37,619 nt of DNA, from IMG/VR virus record IMGVR_UViG_3300025122_000007, positions 1 to 37,619 of that record. One strand, given 5' to 3'. Below the pieces are notes generated by a model that saw nothing but the letters and a program-made list of their open reading frames with translations, ran no database searches and was not told where the DNA came from. The stretch is from a virus. Lineage: Duplodnaviria > Heunggongvirae > Uroviricota > Caudoviricetes. A program made the position numbers and the translations under genes. How positions within the stretch are numbered: position 1 is the stretch's first letter; every line of letters starts with the position of its first letter. Positions 4,754-36,616 of the stretch are shown in pieces.

Positions 4754-5845
4754 TTAATCCTCCTCGAAAGTAACCAGCCTTGCAAAGGTCATAGGATCAC
4801 CTTCTTTCATGCCCCAGACCCATTGGCTTGCAGCATCTCCTAAGCCAAGAGACTCCGCAAAGTCATCCTTTCCACAAAGACTTCCGCTTCTGAATACAGG
4901 ACATCCAAGAACATATTCGATAGCAGGAGTATGCCAATGGCCACAAGCGGCTACGTCATAGTCATGCTGTAACATCCAGTTCTGCCACTGAGCGGCTGGG
5001 CTTGGAGAGGTCCCCCTCTTTGCCTTGTGTCTCAAGAGGATTCTTTGCCCCTTCACTTCAACTAAGATGAATTGTCTGGAATTGGGATATTCAATTGAGA
5101 TGCTTTCAGGAATCTGATCACATAACAGGTCCAAAATGATATAGATCATTTGGTCCCAGTTTGTCAGTTCATCAGCTGTCTTCGATGTACGTCCATGATT
5201 GCCAGGACAACCTACCACCCTAACGGGTAGTCCTGTGACCTTGTTCATGCGACGGAGAAGCTCAAAGAATCCCTTGGCGGTGTTCTTGACCTGCTCTACT
5301 GCATTCTGTTCGATATGCATTGCTTGCGTGAAGTAGATACCCTCACCATCAATCATGTCGCCGCCCATAAGAACAACGATCTCATCTGCATTTCTCTCAA
5401 GAGCAAAACGACAAGCTTCTTCTGCTACCTTTGAGGCGCGTCGTGCACCGATCTCTGGGTTGAAAAGAACTCGAGTCTTATCTTCTTCATCGGTAATGAT
5501 CTTACCAAAATGCGTATCTGAAAAAAGAACCACAATCGATTCTTTCTCAGATTTTACAGGCGTAAGCTTGCTCTTTGTCGGTCGTGTTTCCTTGACCATC
5601 TCCTTTAGAGTTCTCGCAAAGCCTTGTAAGGCTCTACGAACCTGGAACCTGGTAGCTTGTTGAGGAAGAGAGAGATCTAACTGTTCCAGGTCTTCAACGT
5701 TTTGTACTTTGATCACACTCTCTGTCGTAACGACATTCTTTGGATCACCGTAAGCACTGTCGAGACTGGCTTCGAGCTTCCTTCTCCTTCTTGTATCTGC
5801 GGCCTTGCGAGCTATCTCGCTACGCCGCTCAGCTGTTAATCCCAT
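4754..5845 (-). CDS. Calcineurin-like metallophosphoesterase (Mre11/SbcD-like fold) with a basic N-terminal helix
   Basis: Motifs SDTHFG, GGDMIDG, PGNHGR and GHWH. Confidence 0.85.
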   Translation of the reverse strand: MGLTAERRSEIARKAADTRRRRKLEASLDSAYGDPKNVVTTESVIKVQNVEDLEQLDLSLPQQATRFQVRRALQGFARTLKEMVKETRPTKSKLTPVKSEKESIVVLFSDTHFGKIITDEEDKTRVLFNPEIGARRASKVAEEACRFALERNADEIVVLMGGDMIDGEGIYFTQAMHIEQNAVEQVKNTAKGFFELLRRMNKVTGLPVRVVGCPGNHGRTSKTADELTNWDQMIYIILDLLCDQIPESISIEYPNSRQFILVEVKGQRILLRHKAKRGTSPSPAAQWQNWMLQHDYDVAACGHWHTPAIEYVLGCPVFRSGSLCGKDDFAESLGLGDAASQWVWGMKEGDPMTFARLVTFEED

Positions 5846-25372: not shown

Positions 25373-25778
25373 TGGTGGACGTGGGGAGAGTCGAACTCCC
25401 GTCCGCAAACACTCATGTGTTCATCGATACAATCATTCCTGTTAACAGGCATAGGGGCGTCGTTAGGACGCCTCCACCAGGGTAGATTTAAGGTCTCTCC
25501 AAGACAGGGGTGAGTAGTTTATATCCTCCGCTCTCAGAGGTGAATTTATCAAAGCGACTTTCTGTTCAGAGGCAGTCACCGCCCGTGGCTTTATGCGAGT
25601 GCGAGCTCGCCAGATCCGAAGATCATAGCGAAATCGGCCCTCAGGCCAGCGAACACAGTCTCGATTGACTCGATCATATCTGCATTTACTTTGTTTGGGT
25701 TTGTATTTAAGTGAGCCAACCCACTCACTGATTGCGATTCATACAGTCTTGTATCCACGTCGATACCTTTTCACGCCC
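25373..25778 (-). ncRNA. ssrA: tmRNA, 406 nt, one-piece
   Basis: Acceptor stem GGGCGUG/CACGUCC with G3:U70, discriminator A and encoded CCA. 5' GGUAUCGAC, T-arm GGGAG-UUCGACU-CUCCC, pk1 (GUGAGU/GCUCAC with GGGUU/AACCC), and an internal tag ORF. Confidence 0.96.
25591..25683 (-). other. tmRNA tag reading frame: (A)ADMIESIETVFAGLRADFAMIFGSGELALA*
   Basis: The resume codon GCA after GUAAAU is inferred. The frame is open for 30 codons and ends LALA-UAA. Confidence 0.8.
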
Positions 25779-25851: not shown

Positions 25852-26220
25852 TTAGAACGGGATAGGAGCTGTTCCACCCGTCACTGCGCCAGTGGTCTCA
25901 GTCGTGGTAGCGACTGTGGTTCCACCGGTGGCCTCATTATAAGCTGCCTCAACCGCTTGCTGCAACTCGACACGTACTTCCTTGGAAGTAGGCCAGACCT
26001 CATCAAAGTAACGACGATTGGTATCACCTTCTGCCTGTGTGTCATCGAACTTACGGTTCTGAGACTGAGGTAGAGCGATAAAATAACCACTACCATCCTT
26101 CTTTCGAATCAACCGATACCTCACGGCGACAGCGTCAGCGATTGTAACAGATCCTCCTGCTACGACTGGTCCATCACCTTCGTTCGGCCAAATTCTAATT
26201 CCTGTAATGAATGTACTCAT
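25852..26220 (-). CDS. spoVG: SpoVG-family nucleic-acid-binding protein with an SSB-like C-terminal tail
   Basis: ITGIRIWP...AGGSVTIADAVAVR...FIALPQ...YFDEVWPTSKEVRVELQQAVEAAY, then a T/G/A-rich linker ending IPF. Confidence 0.8.
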   Translation of the reverse strand: MSTFITGIRIWPNEGDGPVVAGGSVTIADAVAVRYRLIRKKDGSGYFIALPQSQNRKFDDTQAEGDTNRRYFDEVWPTSKEVRVELQQAVEAAYNEATGGTTVATTTETTGAVTGGTAPIPF

Positions 26221-26408
26221 TAGTTCTCCTTAATGTCCATAAAGCCCATCCATTTCAGGGTCTTATCCAGGACTGCATTGATTTCTTTAGCTAATTCCAC
26301 GTCTTTGCATTGGATAGCTAAGGCATAGAGATCAGTTCCGCTCTTGTAAAATTCATAGGTTATCATCTGGTAATGCAGATTGTCCTTGAGTTCCTTCGTC
26401 GTACTCAC
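26220..26408 (-). CDS. Small hypothetical protein overlapping the RT 3' end
   Basis: 62-aa ORF whose stop abuts the spoVG start. Confidence 0.5.
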   Translation of the reverse strand: MSTTKELKDNLHYQMITYEFYKSGTDLYALAIQCKDVELAKEINAVLDKTLKWMGFMDIKEN

Positions 26409-27222
26409 CTCTATAACTCCTCATCAAGCTTTCATATTGAGAAGGCTTGACTCCTTTGATGAACTCCAGAATGCCAAGCATGCTTTCGTCCATCTCTTCT
26501 CCCTTCAGCCCCAAGAAATGGAGCTGTTGGCGCAACTGATTTCTTGTCTTCTTCGATACACCAAGTGTGTCGTTGTTGACTACGATTCCAGTTACAGACT
26601 GTCGTTGGAAGTAAGGCATCTTCTTGATCTTGCGATCATTGAGCTTAAAGCCAAATTCCTCAGCTACGGTACGTATCCTGTTTACAAACCAATCAGGTAT
26701 CTCATCTCCAGAAAAGGTAAGATCATCTGCATACCGTGTATAGGTAAGCTCCTGACTGTCCGCTACTCTTTTCAACTCAAAATCCATAGGCTTAAGTACT
26801 ATGTTTGAGATGACTGGACTGGTACATGCTCCCTGTGGAAGACATCCATTCAAGGTGCAGAGAGATGTTATCTTCTCTACATCCCATTCATCATTGACAT
26901 CAAGGTGCTCTTCCTCTCTTGTAAGAGCTTTGAAGATCATGAAGCTGGTAACAGAGGGAAAGAAGTCTTTGAGATCTATATTGATCACATACTTCTTTGC
27001 CTTATGAAGCTCAGCATTTGTAAGAATGCTTCTGTCTGCTCTGAAACCATGTGCAGCTGGATGCAAAGGAACCTTATCAAGTCGTTCTTTTGCCAGCTTG
27101 TGCCACTCGATGATGTCACCGATAGGTTCAGTGATCTGCCGAAACTTTCCACTCTTTTTCTTTACTGAATAGATTCGATAGTAACTATGTCTATTCGCTA
27201 AGATGTCACTGAGTCCAGACAT
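26353..27222 (-). CDS. Retron-type reverse transcriptase
   Basis: KKSGKFRQI, AHGF, NAELH (NAxxH), IDLKDFFPS, LPQGACTSP, catalytic YADD, and SVTGIVVN (VTG). Confidence 0.93.
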   Translation of the reverse strand: MSGLSDILANRHSYYRIYSVKKKSGKFRQITEPIGDIIEWHKLAKERLDKVPLHPAAHGFRADRSILTNAELHKAKKYVINIDLKDFFPSVTSFMIFKALTREEEHLDVNDEWDVEKITSLCTLNGCLPQGACTSPVISNIVLKPMDFELKRVADSQELTYTRYADDLTFSGDEIPDWFVNRIRTVAEEFGFKLNDRKIKKMPYFQRQSVTGIVVNNDTLGVSKKTRNQLRQQLHFLGLKGEEMDESMLGILEFIKGVKPSQYESLMRSYRGEYDEGTQGQSALPDDNL

Positions 27223-27845
27223 TCTTCTTCACCTGGTAGGAAGTTTCTCCATGAAGAATGAACCTTGCTGACTCCTGCTGTCATTGGTTTCCATTCTGGA
27301 ATGTAAGGCTTCGATAGAAGTTTCATTCCTGCTTCTTTTGGAGTTCTGTTCCCCTTCCTTTGATTGCACTTGATACATGCTGTCACACAATTATCAAAGT
27401 TGGTTCCAGGGAAACGCATGGTTGGATGGTTTCTTGGTATCACATGATCTATGTTGATACGCGGCCTGCCATTGCTATCTCTTCTGTTTCTCTTGAAATC
27501 ATTACCACAGTACTGGCATCTATAGTTGTCTCTTTCAAAGACACCACCTCTGCTGTATTTCAGTTCATGCCTAGGTAGTCTGTCGTACTTGGTAAGAATG
27601 ACCACTCTAGGAACTAGGATGGGTGTTCCTGGACCATGCCTAACAAAGTCCTCGAACAATTCCATCTGCTTTTCATTGACTGGCAGAGTTCTCCACGCAG
27701 AGAAATCATGAACCATTCCAGTTCTATGATCTAGAGCGTTTACCGTTCCAGAGCATAGTCTTGTGAATGCTCTTCCTACTTCAATGATATGAATAGGAAA
27801 CCATTGTTTGTTTAGTACTAAAGTATCACCACGGATGCCCATCAT
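27198..27845 (-). CDS. McrA-like HNH endonuclease
   Basis: RDNYRCQYCG, NIDHVIPR and VTACIKCNQRKGNRTP. Overlaps the RT start by 25 nt. Confidence 0.9.
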   Translation of the reverse strand: MMGIRGDTLVLNKQWFPIHIIEVGRAFTRLCSGTVNALDHRTGMVHDFSAWRTLPVNEKQMELFEDFVRHGPGTPILVPRVVILTKYDRLPRHELKYSRGGVFERDNYRCQYCGNDFKRNRRDSNGRPRINIDHVIPRNHPTMRFPGTNFDNCVTACIKCNQRKGNRTPKEAGMKLLSKPYIPEWKPMTAGVSKVHSSWRNFLPGEEECLDSVTS

Positions 27846-27862
27846 CCATCTCCTTTAGGTTG

Positions 27863-28087
27863 TGGTAGTTTCAGGAATCGAACCCAAATGCAGACAATCC
27901 CCTCTGTGTTAACAAAAGTGGAAAGGTGAATTGTGTGCTTACACCAGCTCTACCTTGAAATTCAATCCATAAGCTCCATGGCTTAGGTTCTCTTTGGCAA
28001 TGCCCTTACTTAGCCTCTAACCATCACTCGTTTAAGAGGCACCGTAGGAATCAGACCGTCGTCTGCTCTGCTTATGAATCAAACTAC
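27863..28087 (-). ncRNA. Candidate ~225-nt structured RNA with tRNA-like closure (candidate RT-associated ncRNA)
   Basis: Terminal stem GUAGUUU/AAACUAC, 8-bp GCAGACGA/UUGUCUGC, T-arm-like UUGGG-UUCGAUU-CCUGA, and several internal hairpins. Confidence 0.55.
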
Positions 28088-28118
28088 AAGCAAGGGGCCA
28101 GCTGTGCTGAGCCCCTTG
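28081..28118 (-). terminator. GC-rich hairpin, possible terminator or processing site after the ThiF gene
   Basis: CAAGGGGC(U)CAGC-ACA-GCUG-GCCCCUUG followed by CUUGUAGUUU (weak U-tract). Confidence 0.5.
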
Positions 28119-28193
28119 TATATGCTTACCGTTCCTTAGAGGTCCCTATTGGTTTGTCTCTGTCCCTCATATTGGGTAAGCAATGCAGTCTAA

Positions 28194-29264
28194 TCAGACT
28201 GCCAGTTCTACCTCGGCTACTTGATCCTCAGTCGTCTCTACCACTTCGATCGTAGGAGTCTCTTCGACGACTGTCGCCTTCTTCTTCTTACGCTTTCGTG
28301 GATATGCAACCTTATAAAGGTCTAGCTCCTTCAGGGTGGTATCAAAGTTTACGATCTTCTCATGAGCAGCTTGGATAGCTGTTCTGGTCAAACGAACAGG
28401 AGTTATCCTGTTGGTGTTAGCCTTGAAGTAGACCATATGATAACCCAACGGTTCATGTCTCAATATTACTTGCAGTGCATTGTATAATACTTGTGCTGCA
28501 GTCATATTGACCGAAATACTTTGGGGGTTGGCCAAAGCTCTCATTGCACAGTTCTCAGGGTTTTCTGCTTCGGTGGGCAACAAGCCCATCTCTCCGAAAG
28601 CACTTGGGAACTGTTCAAAGAAACAAGGGAGCCTGAATGCCTTTGGAATAGGCACTTCTTCAGAATCTAAGTCTGGGTCTTCCAAAGCAGAGATGGTGTC
28701 CCTGCTTTGTCCTTTATACGCGATGACCATTTGACCTGTGAACTGTTCGTTTCCTGAGTCCAACCAGAAAGTCTCTAGGTGCTCAGGTCTCTTCATGTAC
28801 CACTTGAAGAACAGTGCTCTTGTCTTGTTGTTGTCTACGCATGTAATCAAGATAGGACTTGCGTTGGTAGATTGGGTATAGATCAGAGCATTGATGTCTT
28901 CGTTGCTCTCTAGATAGCCATTGTAGTAGGCGATATCAATGCCAAAGGCATTTGAATATCTCTTTGCCATGACTTCAGCTTTGTACTTGTTGACATCAGC
29001 TCTTACAAACTGTTGTCTTACAAGATTCTTATCTTCTACCTTGTCACCATCAACCAAGACCAGCCTTAGGCTGTCAGGTTTCTTGTTGCCCATGCCACCA
29101 CGTCTCAACTTGTTGATGAGTGAGATGTATCGTGCCAGGTGTGGAATCAGATAGCCGCCAGTTCCTCCACATCCCACTACGATGACGACCTTGTCGATAG
29201 ATCTATCGGAAGGCCCCCGATTATAATAGCCGTGGAAGTTATGTACTGTATTAATTTCTCGCAT
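28194..29264 (-). CDS. ThiF/E1-like ubiquitin-activating enzyme (PRTRC-type; likely start MREINT)
   Basis: VVGCGGTGG, LVDGDKVEDKNLVRQQF, KAEVMA, TCVDNNKTR, WLDSGN, and a conserved-position Cys in ENCA. Confidence 0.9.
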   Translation of the reverse strand: MREINTVHNFHGYYNRGPSDRSIDKVVIVVGCGGTGGYLIPHLARYISLINKLRRGGMGNKKPDSLRLVLVDGDKVEDKNLVRQQFVRADVNKYKAEVMAKRYSNAFGIDIAYYNGYLESNEDINALIYTQSTNASPILITCVDNNKTRALFFKWYMKRPEHLETFWLDSGNEQFTGQMVIAYKGQSRDTISALEDPDLDSEEVPIPKAFRLPCFFEQFPSAFGEMGLLPTEAENPENCAMRALANPQSISVNMTAAQVLYNALQVILRHEPLGYHMVYFKANTNRITPVRLTRTAIQAAHEKIVNFDTTLKELDLYKVAYPRKRKKKKATVVEETPTIEVVETTEDQVAEVELAV

Positions 29265-29271
29265 TGTATCC

Positions 29272-30591
29272 TTACTCGCCAAACGTTTCGCTTGTCTCGT
29301 GAAAATCTCGAAGAGCCTCGTTGATAGTTTCATTGTGACCTATGGCCGCCAATCTACCTACGATATGATAGATGTCATCTTGATCAGCTATGTTACAGAT
29401 TGCATCGATGTAGTCGTAGATCGCTGCTTCGTCAGCAAGGAGCCAGCTGAACTCTTCGAATTGATCTGGAGGATCAATACCTACCAAGTATTCAGAGACC
29501 CAATCTGGATCTTCTCCGAAGGTATAAAGAAGCTCTCTATCATCCTTGCCAAGACCAAACTTCTCCCACCAGTCGACAGTCTGTTCACCAAAAGCATCTC
29601 TTATCTTCTGGATCCTGTCTTCTTCCTTCGGAAGGTAGTACGTCCTGCTCGGACCCCACTCCCCAAAGAGGCTCGGATCGAACGAGGACTTGGTCTTGAA
29701 TTCAACTGGAATTCCATTGACGATTGAGTCTGGTCTGCCTTGAAAGCGGCTCCTTGGCCTGACAACCTGCTTTCTTGCAGCTACGTGTGCAATATTCGCC
29801 CGCCATACAGCTTCGGGAATTTCTACCACAGGAATATTTTCCAATCCATCCACTGTGTCGGATTCGATATCAAAGATCTCGTCAAGACTAAGTGGAACCT
29901 CTTGACCTGTAACACAGGAGACTGCACGCAAAGCCCATTCAGGCAGAGCTTTCTGGATCTTGCCAACTACTCCATAAAGTCTGAAGGCTTTCTCGTCAGC
30001 AGTGTCGGTTCCTGAAAAGTAACCAGACATTGTGTTGTGAGAATGAATCTCCATAGCTGTGATGAGGTTCGGATCCGCTTCTTTGGTAAGATCACGCTCA
30101 TAACGGACTCCACCCTTGCTGACCACATGCTTGGGAACGTCAATGAAGTACTCCTGCTTCTCGATGTCAAAGTAGATGACTGCGTATGCCTCAGCCTCAT
30201 TCATCTCTTTACAAATTTTTCTGAAAAAGGTGACGATCTGAGCAAAGTGATTGATTGGGATACGTGGAAGAGTGAGCTCAAAATTAGGCTCGACGTCTTC
30301 AGGGTGTCCAGGAATCTTGAACTCAGCTTCTCTTGTTGTAATTGTTCCAATTGGATTGCTTTCAATTACATAGAGGCCATCACCACGGACAATCTTTGTT
30401 CGTGGCTTGTCATACGTACCACTCTCAGACACGTCGGTCACATAACCATAGTATCTATTTTGGAGCTGTTCTCTTACGGTGCTCTTGTTCTTTTGAGTTT
30501 CCATGACTGCCTCTTTCTTGGCAGCGGATTGCCTATCAATCATATTTTTTAGAGCAGCGATGCTGCCATTCGTACTAGTAAGTTTGTCCAC
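29272..30591 (-). CDS. Prokaryotic JAB/JAMM isopeptidase (PRTRC protein A-like) with N- and C-terminal extensions
   Basis: E...HSH-x7-S-x2-D (EIHSHNTMSGYFSGTD), and RLYGVVGKI. Confidence 0.88.
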   Translation of the reverse strand: MDKLTSTNGSIAALKNMIDRQSAAKKEAVMETQKNKSTVREQLQNRYYGYVTDVSESGTYDKPRTKIVRGDGLYVIESNPIGTITTREAEFKIPGHPEDVEPNFELTLPRIPINHFAQIVTFFRKICKEMNEAEAYAVIYFDIEKQEYFIDVPKHVVSKGGVRYERDLTKEADPNLITAMEIHSHNTMSGYFSGTDTADEKAFRLYGVVGKIQKALPEWALRAVSCVTGQEVPLSLDEIFDIESDTVDGLENIPVVEIPEAVWRANIAHVAARKQVVRPRSRFQGRPDSIVNGIPVEFKTKSSFDPSLFGEWGPSRTYYLPKEEDRIQKIRDAFGEQTVDWWEKFGLGKDDRELLYTFGEDPDWVSEYLVGIDPPDQFEEFSWLLADEAAIYDYIDAICNIADQDDIYHIVGRLAAIGHNETINEALRDFHETSETFGE

Positions 30592-31255
30592 TGAATGTCT
30601 CCCTGATTAGATCCTTGATGGTCTTGTTTAGCTGCTTCCCCTCAAGAGGAAAGGTTCCATTCCTGACACATGTTGAGATGAATCCATCAGTGCCACCTAG
30701 GTGGCCGTTGAATGGTGTTGAATAGAATGCATTCACAACCCCTCTGCAAGAGGCGATGTCTGTAGCTTCAATACGATTGCTTCCCCAACAGATGGCACCA
30801 CCGCTATACGTGTTGCCATAGCCTGTGAAGTTATACAGTGTATCGGTATCAAACTTGACGCCATGTTGAAGAGCAAAGACCTTGGAGTCTCTGTATCTAT
30901 TTGGCTGCCGACCACCTCGTCCTGCTGCCTTGGGTGCACCTAGCTGGAAGGCAAAGATCAAGTGAGGAAATGGCACCTGCTTGATGATCTCTCCGGTATA
31001 GCCCCAACGAATGTCCACCTTACGAGGACCACTCTGATAAAGAACTGCCTCTGTGTCACCTTGGCGGCCGACAAAGACAACGCCGGTATCAGAACAAGGC
31101 ATCATGCCTGTATCAAATGCAGTTTCAGAAAAGAGATACTTCAAGTCATCAGGATTGATGGTCTTGGTAGACTGAGAGTCTCCTCGTACCTCTGTAATTG
31201 TGGTTCCCTGCTCATCGATTTCGATGATCAGTTTGTCTGGATCAGTTCTTGGCAC
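30575..31255 (-). CDS. Prokaryotic E2 family D-like protein (PRTRC protein B-like)
   Basis: PFPHLIF...KVFAL...LY...GNTYSGGAICWG...FYSTPFNGHL, with the Cys in ICWG. Confidence 0.8.
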   Translation of the reverse strand: MPRTDPDKLIIEIDEQGTTITEVRGDSQSTKTINPDDLKYLFSETAFDTGMMPCSDTGVVFVGRQGDTEAVLYQSGPRKVDIRWGYTGEIIKQVPFPHLIFAFQLGAPKAAGRGGRQPNRYRDSKVFALQHGVKFDTDTLYNFTGYGNTYSGGAICWGSNRIEATDIASCRGVVNAFYSTPFNGHLGGTDGFISTCVRNGTFPLEGKQLNKTIKDLIRETFSGQTY

Positions 31256-32688: not shown

Positions 32689-33111
32689 TTATCGGTTTTG
32701 CAATCTGGTAACCGTAGCCTTGTAGGCTATGATTGAGCGTTGCAGACTCGCGTTCTCAGCAGTGAGACGTGCGATCTCTTCAGCAAGAGCGCCATCTTCT
32801 TCTACATCTACAGCAGCGACACCCCAGACATCAGTCTCGGGCACCTCCTCTGCAGCGAGATGATCAGCTAGAGCATCGCGTGCGTTCTCACGTGCGATCT
32901 CTACCTCATCCACTCGTAGAAGCAGGTCCTCAGCAGTTGCCAAGACTAGATCATCTAGTACTTCAGCATCATCACAGACGTTGACCACCAGGGCATTGCC
33001 TGCACGACCGATAACACTATGTAGTGCACCGTTCTGCTTGACCTTGAGACTCCACTCACCAAAGTTCTCATCCATATCACTAATGAATTGACTTAGCGTC
33101 TTTGTACTCAT
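32689..33111 (-). CDS. Acidic hypothetical protein with C-terminal coiled-coil motif AENxxLxRSIxAYKATVTR
   Basis: 140-aa ORF; the motif is shared with 20871..20993. Confidence 0.6.
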   Translation of the reverse strand: MSTKTLSQFISDMDENFGEWSLKVKQNGALHSVIGRAGNALVVNVCDDAEVLDDLVLATAEDLLLRVDEVEIARENARDALADHLAAEEVPETDVWGVAAVDVEEDGALAEEIARLTAENASLQRSIIAYKATVTRLQNR

Positions 33112-34699
33112 TACTTTCCTCCACTAATTTCAAGAGCTTATGTTGTTCGTTCAACTCGGGTTCATCTAGGACCCGCTCAAGAAGATTCTTTAAGATGCGA
33201 CCATAAACAGGGCCAGGCTCTAGTCCCAACTCCTTCAGATCCTTGCCACCTATGGCAAGGTCATTCGTCTTCAGCGCATTGCTGTCTTTGATTGCTGCCT
33301 CGTACATATACTTGGCTAGCCTCTGATGGAAGGTGGTTCCATGTTTCTTTCTATTTCCCGCTCTGTCCGCAGCACGAAGCAGCAGCAGGTCATAGAATTG
33401 TTGTTCACCACCTACCTTTCTGACCAATCTTCTGATAGCTGACAGTGAGCTCTCATCCGAGATCTTTGTAGCATTGACAGAGCGATCTTCATTACACCTG
33501 GAACACTTGTCCTTGTCTGGTAGATACGCTGGTCTGTCAGGTGCATACTTAGAGTAGTAACTACGCCAGATGTGTCCCTTGTCACACTTACTCTCATAAG
33601 TTTCACTGTCTAATCTAAAGAGATGGTATCTGATCAGATTTGTAACCCTTTCACGAGTCTTGTTGCTGAATCGAAGCTGTTTAAGCTGCCGATCACCAAT
33701 AGAAGCACCGATTGCATCATGTGCATAGAAGGTACAGTCTTCAACAACTTCCCTTACCTTTCCACACTTGATACAACCAGTACGATTCTCTGGTGCTCTT
33801 TTTCCACAACCTCTACATGTATAGGTGATTCCCTTTGATTGGGGCTTTCCTACATCATGCAGCAAAGCTGCAAGCACCAGCTCTGGATCACTGGTGGTGT
33901 TCTTCATCGCTACACATGCCAGGACACTATGAGTCCATACATCATCAGCATGATAGATATTCTGAAGGCATCCGATCGATGGAACCATCTTAGGAAGCAG
34001 ATACCGTACCGCTCCTGTAGTTTTGACCAGCTCAAGGCTTCTGAAGAGATTATCTCCTGAACCCTTGAACGTCTTCATCAACTCGTCCCTTCTCCGTTCC
34101 CAAGACACAACAGACAGACCATCAATATTTTTGGTCATCTCTTTCAGATCTCTGGAACGAATGAAGAAGCCTAGTTGAGATACAAACCTGATCCCTCTTA
34201 GGATTCGAAGATAGTCTTCCTGAATCCGATCGGCCGCCGCGCCTACAAAACGAATCGTCTTCTTGTTGATATCTTTGATACCATCAAAAGGATCAACTAG
34301 TTTTTGCGATTCGACATCAAAAGCAATGGCATTCATCGTAAAGTCACGACGAGCCAGGTCTTCCTCAATGGTCTTAGCCCACTCTACTGTGGCTTTACGA
34401 CCATCAGTGGTTATATCTTTACGGAAGGTAGTAACCTCAATGCTTTCGGATTCAGAGAAACAACCTCTCTGCAGAATGGTCATAGTTCCGTGGGCCTCTC
34501 CCGTTGGAACCACTCTCCATTCTTTTCCTGCGAAAGCAATACACATCTCATCAGGAGTTGCATTGGTAGCGATATCTATATCGTTGAAAGGCCTGCCAAT
34601 CAAGGCATCACGAACACACCCACCTACGTAGTAGGCTTGGTAACCGCTATCAATCAGGCGAGTAGCAACTGCCTTGGCTGTCTTTGAAACTGTAATCAT
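33080..34699 (-). CDS. cca: CCA-adding enzyme / class II tRNA nucleotidyltransferase with HD domain and Zn-ribbon insertions
   Basis: VGGCVRD...DIDIAT, EVTTFR, EEDLARRDFTMNA, EDYLRILR and LLHDVGKP. Confidence 0.92.
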   Translation of the reverse strand: MITVSKTAKAVATRLIDSGYQAYYVGGCVRDALIGRPFNDIDIATNATPDEMCIAFAGKEWRVVPTGEAHGTMTILQRGCFSESESIEVTTFRKDITTDGRKATVEWAKTIEEDLARRDFTMNAIAFDVESQKLVDPFDGIKDINKKTIRFVGAAADRIQEDYLRILRGIRFVSQLGFFIRSRDLKEMTKNIDGLSVVSWERRRDELMKTFKGSGDNLFRSLELVKTTGAVRYLLPKMVPSIGCLQNIYHADDVWTHSVLACVAMKNTTSDPELVLAALLHDVGKPQSKGITYTCRGCGKRAPENRTGCIKCGKVREVVEDCTFYAHDAIGASIGDRQLKQLRFSNKTRERVTNLIRYHLFRLDSETYESKCDKGHIWRSYYSKYAPDRPAYLPDKDKCSRCNEDRSVNATKISDESSLSAIRRLVRKVGGEQQFYDLLLLRAADRAGNRKKHGTTFHQRLAKYMYEAAIKDSNALKTNDLAIGGKDLKELGLEPGPVYGRILKNLLERVLDEPELNEQHKLLKLVEESNEYKDAKSIH

Positions 34700-36159: not shown

Positions 36160-36616
36160 TATGGTGAGCTAAGCTTGGGCACTGCCCAACCATAGCTCAC
36201 TTTATTTAGATATTTTATCTAAATAATAACTAAAGTGGACTGTTGTTTAAATTAAGAGTGAGCTGACTCAGCTGTGCTGACAAAACGCGAACGGGATTTA
36301 AACATATGTCTACTTTAGTGACACTAGTCTCCTTCTTTTGGAAGTACGACTATTGGGACCCAGGCCTGGACACCGCCAAGTCTAGGGCCATCTTCGAGCG
36401 CGCCGGAGCGCTCTTCGTCCGGCATGCGCAGCTGGCCAAAACTCCAGATCTATATCTGGCGCCGTCGGGCTGCTCGTTTCCCGGATCCGCCACCTGGTGG
36501 CGGACTTCACGTCCGGGAAGATCTTCGAAGAGCGAGACCCGACTTTGTCCTGAATGAGAGGCAGGTGACTGTGTCACCGACCGCTGAACATTCTGGATCT
36601 TAGTCGGGTCTCTACC

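Follow-up and report, generated by a model that had tools for sequence, protein, structure and literature searches.

A degenerate tRNA-like element ahead of an HNH endonuclease gene in a phage ubiquitin-like/reverse transcriptase operon

The element at 27863-28087 of the window, a 37,619-nt stretch of DNA from a large marine phage that makes up the opening 37.6 kb of an IMG/VR virus record of 120 kb, is best classed as a degenerate tRNA mimic that has retained the top half alone and travelled with a free-standing HNH endonuclease gene into a ubiquitin-like/reverse transcriptase (Ubl-RT) operon. We hold with moderate confidence that a tRNA-derived element entered the junction of the ThiF and RT genes together with this HNH gene and was kept as an acceptor/T-arm minihelix, in which form it probably acts as an RNA processing signal. 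In four to five phage lineages a tRNA-like top half, made of an acceptor-type stem and a T arm, lies at the same place, and it is under selection, because it recurs there and its pairing has been kept through double changes. By the available tests the element belongs to neither the tRNA, tmRNA, YrlA nor retron msr-msd families.

Genomic setting and parts of the element

All genes around the element, from the CCA-adding enzyme through the tmRNA, are located on the minus strand:

33080-34699, minus strand: gene of a CCA-adding enzyme
30575-31255, minus strand: Prok-E2-like gene
29272-30591, minus strand: JAB-like gene
28194-29333, minus strand: ThiF/E1-like gene, the upstream neighbour of the element, which abuts the RT gene directly in HNH-less relatives
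27846-28193, minus strand: ThiF-HNH spacer of 349 nt, which contains the element
27198-27845, minus strand: HNH endonuclease gene, 215 aa (Pfam HNH, 5e-10; phrog_16726, 9e-24)
26353-27222, minus strand: retron-clade reverse transcriptase gene, 289 aa (RVT_1, 6.5e-21; PADLOC retron RT_III-A, 1.6e-70)
26220-26408, minus strand: 62-aa ORF overlapping the RT stop, encoding a conserved small protein with the motif DLY..A....V.LAK
25852-26220, minus strand: SpoVG gene
25373-25778, minus strand: bona fide tmRNA of the phage (89.7 bits)

The HNH gene starts 18 nt past the acceptor 3′ strand of the element (27864) and 13 nt past a ribosome-binding site, AAAGGAG. Its CxxC..DH..N..CxxC motif is invariant across 4 lineages, and its reading frame overlaps that of the RT by 25 nt. 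The RT carries the motifs NAxxH, YADD and VTG, which together with the profile match place it in the retron clade. Homologues of the 62-aa ORF are found in L009, L011 (as an uncalled 70-aa ORF at 4908-5120), L013 and L015, and weaker ones in L178 and L183; a non-coding RNA downstream of the RT was considered and rejected, because that stretch encodes this small protein, which is conserved in six lineages.

Further on, the same strand of the genome holds 30 tRNA genes (38.8-64.7 kb), a YrlA-like RNA and a GOLLD-like RNA, and the gene content of the phage also includes Ro60 and Y-RNA-like RNAs. A second copy of HNH or RT was not found in the 120-kb genome, where a search for paralogues of the element (blastn-short, nhmmer) returned the T-arm motif alone. 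Among 50,697 phage records the sole match to similar DNA is 65 nt long, lies inside the HNH gene and is to phage S-CBWM1.

Outside the window, other structured RNAs of the genome (G000) were observed. The GOLLD-like giant RNA at 64341-64788 (minus; L181:6722-7169) reaches 133.9 bits (E = 2e-35), slightly below the gathering score of 150, and has a tRNA embedded in it at L181:7034-7102. Within the 30-gene tRNA array, ARAGORN reports a CUA-anticodon tRNA (amber-reading, labelled Pyl) at 43654-43727 (minus), which may point to suppressor use or TAG recoding. The YrlA-like match at 54588-54702 (minus) scores 30.7 bits, below the gathering score, and T-arm consensus motifs that have no ARAGORN tRNA call are located at 40808, 46634, 46700, 49922, 55248, 55453, 55506, 56368 and 71816; the match and these orphan motifs are probably Y-RNA-like RNAs linked to the Ro60 gene of the phage.

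The element and the hairpin just upstream of it are composed of the following parts:

27863-28087, minus strand: whole element, the 3′ two thirds of the ThiF-HNH spacer; no Rfam match at E<=10 and no default ARAGORN call
28091-28118, minus strand: GC-rich hairpin CAAGGGGC-U-CAGC-ACA-GCUG-GCCCCUUG, just upstream of the element
28081-28087, minus strand: distal 5′ strand GUAGUUU, which pairs 7/7 with AAACUAC at 27865-27871 as terminal stem and is followed by G 28080; ensemble probability 0.61
28070-28085, minus strand: 5′ strand AGUUUGAUUCAUAAGC of an alternative long helix that spans the linker described as unpaired; minimum free energy (MFE) structure, 16 pairs including 4 G-U, P = 0.61
28067-28080, minus strand: 14-nt linker GAUUCAUAAGCAGA
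28059-28066, minus strand: 5′ strand GCAGACGA of an 8-bp helix, in competition with a local hairpin CAGAC-GACG-GUCUG at 28052-28065
27959-27974, minus strand: 3′ strand GCUUAUGGAUUGAAUU of the alternative long helix
27948-27954, minus strand: proximal candidate acceptor 5′ strand GGUAGAG, with 5 pairs to CUACC at 27864-27868; ensemble P = 0.10, giving a tRNA-like form of ~90 nt
27890-27897, minus strand: 3′ strand UUGUCUGC of the 8-bp helix, 2 nt before the T arm
27871-27887, minus strand: T arm UUGGG / UUCGAUU / CCUGA, 5 pairs including 2 G-U; exact T-loop consensus, with position conserved and stem covarying in L009, L011, L013 and L177
27864-27870, minus strand: acceptor 3′ strand AACUACC in the canonical register, then A73 and CAACC

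The terminal stem with its following G, the T arm and three small hairpins in the insert had all been described in an earlier note on this DNA, and each of them is present in the sequence. The T-arm motif GGTTCGATTCC is an exact match to the consensus and has no second copy in the window; elsewhere in the genome 30 further T-arm consensus motifs occur, at 38.8-71.8 kb and mostly inside tRNA genes. Seven Watson-Crick pairs and 1 G-U pair make up the helix GCAGACGA/UUGUCUGC, and GAGG..AUUGUCUG from the region of its 3′ strand is also found in L177. No CCA is encoded after the acceptor 3′ strand of the element; L009 and L011 have the same layout at this point as the window, with CA after position 73. 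The insert contains ORFs of 4-5 codons only.

The GC-rich hairpin at 28091-28118 may serve the E2-JAB-E1 genes as terminator or as processing hairpin, and a terminator scan gave no call on it. Its 12-mer UCAGCACAGCUG (a C-ACA-G triloop hairpin) also occurs at 36269-36280 (minus), in a module near Ro60, and the shared hairpin may represent a recurrent boundary or terminator hairpin. In the spacer as a whole, the promoter/terminator scan found no promoter-like site and one terminator-like match, on the plus strand only.

Conservation in relatives and folding of the window element

A protein search with the RT recovered relatives whose identity is 53-58% (five lineages) or 40-45% (several), and their contigs were compared; in the RT and HNH protein searches taken together, only five lineages exceeded 50% identity. 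In the HNH-bearing lineages (the window, L009, L011, which is the same as L017/L097, L013 and L177) the order is ThiF, a spacer of 237-349 nt, HNH and RT. In the HNH-less lineages (L014-16, L178, L182 and L183), on the other hand, the ThiF stop abuts or overlaps the RT start, and no spacer, HNH gene or tRNA-like element was seen within 3.5 kb; in L183 this distance holds no gap of 60 nt or more around the RT. The nine lineages form one clade in the RT tree (100/99 support), with the five HNH-bearing lineages together and L014 beside them without resolved placement. The simplest history is one insertion of spacer and HNH into the ThiF|RT junction, its direction resting on parsimony.

The spacers cannot be aligned across lineages except at their 3′ ends, which share one order: the T arm, 7 nt that form a stem with a 7-mer further upstream, ~20-45 nt containing the ribosome-binding site, and the HNH start. 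The T arm reads GGTTCGAxTCC in three lineages, and L013 and L177 have 5-bp stems with 6-nt loops. All four of the acceptor stems listed here pair despite their different sequences:

Window: (U)GUAGUU / AACUAC(C)
L009: GGACAU / AUGUCC
L011: UGGUACG / CGUACCA
L013: GGUGGUA / UGCCACC

Covariation analysis had been suggested in the earlier note, and the T stem indeed covaries: 95% of its cells across relatives are paired, and 4/5 pairs have changed on both sides, a result that involved no hand choice. The acceptor partners were hand-picked and were therefore tested against shuffles, in which the acceptor pairing alone is significant for L011 (26/2000) and L013 (54/2000) and not for the window or L009 (~740/2000). 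In the canonical tRNA register the terminal stem of the window has 6/7 pairs, equalled or bettered by 737/2000 shuffles. For the combination of a T arm (5-bp stem, UUCRANN loop) with a 7-bp acceptor stem, 93.8% of cells are paired (12 pairs, 4 lineages, acceptor partners hand-chosen). These structures persist at RT and HNH identities of 48-64% across lineages.

The closed elements of the relatives are 59 nt (L011), 65 nt (L009) and ~92 nt (up to 95) long, with the mimics at L011:3297-3355, L009:3300-3368 and L013:2214-2306. In each, a short 5′ linker is single-stranded and one helix, capped by 4, 7 or 18 nt, abuts the T arm; a D-like stem, of at most 3 bp, is seen in L013 only. This architecture resembles the one proposed for the window, with an insert of ~150 nt that would be lineage-specific, and it would allow a proximal closure equally. 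The spacer of L009 also opens with a hairpin of ~80 nt (L009:3066-3132), which has a perfect 14-bp base, GGGAAAUCUCCUCC / GGAGGAGAUUUCCC, and no counterpart in the window.

The earlier note had closed the window element over 225 nt, with a ~170-nt insert, a 14-nt unpaired linker and an 8-bp stem. This arrangement (7/7 terminal stem and 8/8 helix in tRNA order) arises in 21/20000 shuffles, in a test designed post hoc, and the model folds at -60.9 kcal/mol, 4 kcal/mol above the MFE structure at -65.0. The linker exists as a stretch at 28080-28067, but in the MFE structure it is predicted to pair with 27959-27974 in a helix of 13-16 bp (ensemble probability 0.61). Likewise, the 8-bp stem pairs at 28066-28059/27897-27890, yet its ensemble probability is 0.17, and 30% of shuffles contain the 8/8 helix alone once G-U pairs are admitted. 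The overall fold is not unusually stable in comparison to shuffles (z = -1.53). Because closure spans no more than 59, 65 and ~92 nt in the relatives, the ~170-nt insert would be peculiar to the window phage or would not be an insert at all, and the predicted 225-nt closure is not secure. ARAGORN reports the ~90-nt form only at the 80% threshold with introns, as a mismatched "tRNA-Val + 9-nt intron" at 27954-27862.

Sister contigs with an identical RT protein differ from the window by G>A at 28056 (L004, L006 and L007) and C>A at 28038 (L004). Both SNPs lie in the insert and each disrupts one pair of a small local hairpin, the change at 28056 weakening CAGAC-GACG-GUCUG. Neither is informative on structure and the near-identical contigs show no others, so that the competing folds of the 5′ 135 nt are candidates.

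Tests of membership in known families agree with a tRNA-like top half outside the tRNA family. The comparison with Rfam suggested in the earlier note gave no match of the spacer to any family at E<=10 in an 801-nt search (tRNA, tmRNA, YrlA, retron msr and introns included). With RF00005 there was no match at E<=10 in the window, L009, L013 and L011 spacers; L011 gave one 13.7-bit match to tRNA-Sec. In comparison, a covariance-model score of at least 29 bits was taken to define a tRNA, and the real tRNAs of the phage score 32-68 bits. A cloverleaf with a D arm and 7-nt anticodon loop was not recovered, in that ARAGORN made no default call in the window; it labels the L009 element "tRNA-Ile", the acceptor stem being poor. 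Group I or other introns within a tRNA were rejected as well, since no Rfam intron matched and ARAGORN with introns was blank at the normal threshold.

The HNH family and the proposed history of the insertion

What could have brought a piece of tRNA to this junction? Full-length homologues of the HNH protein, at 28-45% identity, were collected at 160 other phage or metagenome loci, none of which has an RT. At 44/160 of these loci the 400 nt upstream of HNH contain ordinary tRNA genes or arrays on the same strand, as called by ARAGORN. A neutral scan for a T arm with a pairing acceptor detects such structures upstream at 29/124 distinct loci, compared to 3/124 on the opposite strand and 16/124 downstream. 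The distance from the tRNA end to the HNH start at the 29 loci is -1 to 138 nt, mostly -1 to 52 nt, a range that includes the 18 nt of the window. The tRNAs at other HNH loci are ordinary, 70-86 nt long, and the degenerate form without a D arm is limited to the RT-linked clade.

Homing endonuclease genes are known to reside in phage tRNA clusters, T4 SegB being an example (PMC2330249), and S-CBWM1 has an HNH nuclease inside a tRNA array in which pseudo-tRNAs are annotated. Since HNH genes without an RT stand behind tRNAs and homing endonuclease genes occur in tRNA clusters, the tRNA-like piece is explained by the habit of the HNH family and not by the RT. The literature yielded nothing specific on RT/ThiF pairing or on tRNA-like leaders of homing endonuclease genes. 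As an observation on the family itself, phrog_16726-like HNH proteins with an N-terminal LVLNK.W.PI domain are widespread in phages (loci L017-L176), and approximately 1/4 of their loci lie directly behind tRNA genes, the start often less than 10 nt past the tRNA.

In comparison to the tRNA genes beside homing endonuclease genes, such as T4 segB and those of S-CBWM1, the element has the same T arm and acceptor stem, on the same strand and immediately 5′ of the HNH ORF. It differs in failing every tRNA model, having neither a D arm nor a 7-nt anticodon loop, and in its location outside the phage tRNA array and inside the ThiF-RT operon, where the top half alone is conserved.

We hypothesize that the element is the untranslated leader of the free-standing HNH gene, which, along with a tRNA gene or fragment, would have been inserted into the once-contiguous ThiF|RT junction of the phage operon. 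Of the tRNA, selection would then have kept the top half alone, with its acceptor-type stem stacked on a canonical T arm and ending ~20-45 nt before the HNH start codon. The remainder would have been free to vary, so that the D arm is missing, the anticodon-side helix is capped by 4 to ~150 nt and decoding is lost. Transcript punctuation would be the most likely job of such a leader, because the acceptor/T-arm minihelix is the shape recognised by RNase P, RNase Z and CCA-adding enzymes. Cleavage at the mimic, which we infer to be by RNase P or RNase Z, would part the E2-JAB-E1 message from the HNH-RT message and place a 5′ end just before the HNH ribosome-binding site. The conservation, the covariation, the history of the insertion and the association of HNH genes with tRNAs are shown by the comparisons above, and the role in processing is inferred from them.

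The leader reading is favoured by the five HNH-bearing lineages that have the spacer against the four HNH-less ones in which ThiF and RT abut, and by the CCA-adding enzyme of the phage, whose bona fide tRNA genes likewise have no encoded CCA. Several findings stand against it. In all five lineages the reading frames of HNH and RT overlap and show comparable rates of evolution; the overlap suggests translational coupling, and both features fit a domesticated module no less than a selfish element. The spacer is also the only sizeable same-strand non-coding stretch beside the RT, and a retron-clade RT normally needs a nearby non-coding RNA. In the window, L009 and L011, three of the four lineages, the nucleotide after the 5′ acceptor strand is G, at a position where U is near-universal in tRNAs. 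The D-arm-less form is confined to the RT-linked clade, and gain in one clade as opposed to loss in the others is argued by parsimony, with the placement of L014 lacking resolution in the tree.

Tentatively, the element would work like a tRNA-like processing module. Such signals in longer transcripts include mitochondrial tRNA punctuation, the mascRNA of MALAT1 and sites of RNase P cleavage in bacterial operon mRNAs. As in these systems an acceptor/T-arm mimic stands between two coding units, and the phage element differs in being known from its sequence. If our main reading is correct, a homing-type nuclease cassette can bring a tRNA into an unrelated operon, of which only the part read by processing enzymes is then retained, and this would help with the annotation of "orphan T arms", which are numerous in the genomes of large phages.

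Alternative explanations

Among the alternatives we first weigh a stand-alone tRNA-like small RNA, matured by RNase P and the CCA-adding enzyme of the phage, that would act as a decoy for a tRNA-cleaving host defence, as a partner of Ro60 and quality control, or as a non-decoding aminoacyl carrier. The conserved top half is consistent with this proposal, and so is the equipment of the phage, which carries Ro60, Y-RNA-like RNAs, a CCA-adding enzyme, a tmRNA and 30 tRNAs. Host defences that cleave tRNAs are documented, as are phage tRNA countermeasures (PMC13096335, PMC12673091). We nevertheless consider such an RNA unlikely: the spacer lacks a promoter-like site, the position of the element is tied to the HNH start codon, and the bottom half, which is the target of anticodon-loop nucleases, is not conserved.

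The YrlA and tmRNA models gave no match either, in the window spacer or in those of L009, L013 and L011. The element resembles the bacterial and phage YrlA and Y RNAs (RF02553) in being a tRNA-mimicking non-coding RNA of a Ro60-encoding phage, the genome having the weak YrlA-like match elsewhere. YrlA has its ends, which form a Ro-binding stem, on the anticodon side and a capped acceptor stem, whereas the element ends at the acceptor stem, and a YrlA-type Y RNA was rejected on this topology and on the missing match at E<=10 at the site. The likeness to the tRNA-like domain of tmRNA (RF00023) is closer in appearance: both combine an acceptor stem with a T arm and lack a D stem, in both the 5′ linker is single-stranded and a long helix takes the place of the anticodon stem, and the likeness in a large internal insert applies to the window phage only. 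A tmRNA, or a second tmRNA of this phage, was nonetheless rejected, for RF00023 gave no match, ARAGORN -m made no call even at the 80% threshold, and the element has no tag reading frame, pseudoknots or G3:U70. Pair 3:70 is A-U in the register of the earlier note and U-A in the canonical register, in accordance with the tRNA/tmRNA-style mimic without alanine identity described there.

It is distinctly unlikely, in our view, that the element is a decaying tRNA pseudogene with spacer and no present function, the long-range stems of the window phage being due to chance. Such decay could account for a fold that is no more stable than shuffles, for acceptor stems that are not individually significant in the window and L009, for spacers that are unalignable beyond the T arm, and for the pseudo-tRNAs annotated in the S-CBWM1 array. 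However, neutral DNA should be randomised at the protein identities seen between these lineages, and four to five of them still have the T loop, a T stem kept paired by compensatory changes and the same location ahead of HNH.

Could the element instead be the non-coding partner of the retron-type RT? In this proposal it would be a tRNA-mimicking msr-msd or a tRNA-like primer or template, with the acceptor stem as a1/a2, G8 as branching or priming nucleotide and the T arm as first template. The RT is a genuine retron-clade enzyme, the order of non-coding RNA, effector and RT is common among retrons, and the spacer upstream of the effector-like gene is, as noted above, without a competitor beside the RT. 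The overlap and similar evolutionary rates of HNH and RT would also fit. Furthermore, the element in the window has terminal inverted repeats followed by G (7 bp + G) that may correspond to a1/a2, the G recurs in L009 and L011, and the topology is compatible in that tRNA nucleotide 8 adjoins the junction of acceptor and T stem.

Against this, the spacer is missing in four lineages of the same RT clade, so the element is not co-inherited with the RT, and L183 has no gap of 60 nt or more within 3.5 kb of its RT. The closed elements of L011 and L009 are too short for msr and msd, the inverted repeats and G enclosing only ~45-50 nt there. The window element has no long msd hairpin and no hairpin is conserved across lineages, in agreement with the earlier note, which had not taken it for a textbook msr-msd. 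Nothing beyond the tRNA top half is conserved in sequence, no Rfam msr or other sequence or covariance-model similarity was found, and the phage RTs lack the ~55-aa N-terminal extension of the bacterial St85-type retron RTs. The tRNA-like part is already accounted for by the habit of the HNH family, and we regard a retron partner as improbable.

The chances are slimmer still for a tRNA relic turned dedicated primer or template of a retron-derived RT in marine phages, in which the minihelix would replace a1/a2 and G8 would prime, or copying would start at the 3′ end of a CCA-tailed mimic, in the manner of the Neurospora Mauriceville retroplasmid, with HNH as DNA-nicking partner; the role of template or primer put forward in the earlier note is not borne out by the four sister RT lineages without the element, the HNH homologues without an RT and the short enclosed stretches of L011 and L009. 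A tempting, unsupported candidate for the missing RNA partner of the phage retron-type RT is thereby removed.

A separate observation concerns the RT. In nine phage lineages the gene order links a retron-clade RT to the E2-JAB-ThiF cassette, and four of these have no adjacent non-coding RNA. That this RT clade always accompanies the E2-JAB-E1 cassette, in four lineages with no non-coding RNA as neighbour, lies outside the coordinates of the element and is more surprising than the element itself.
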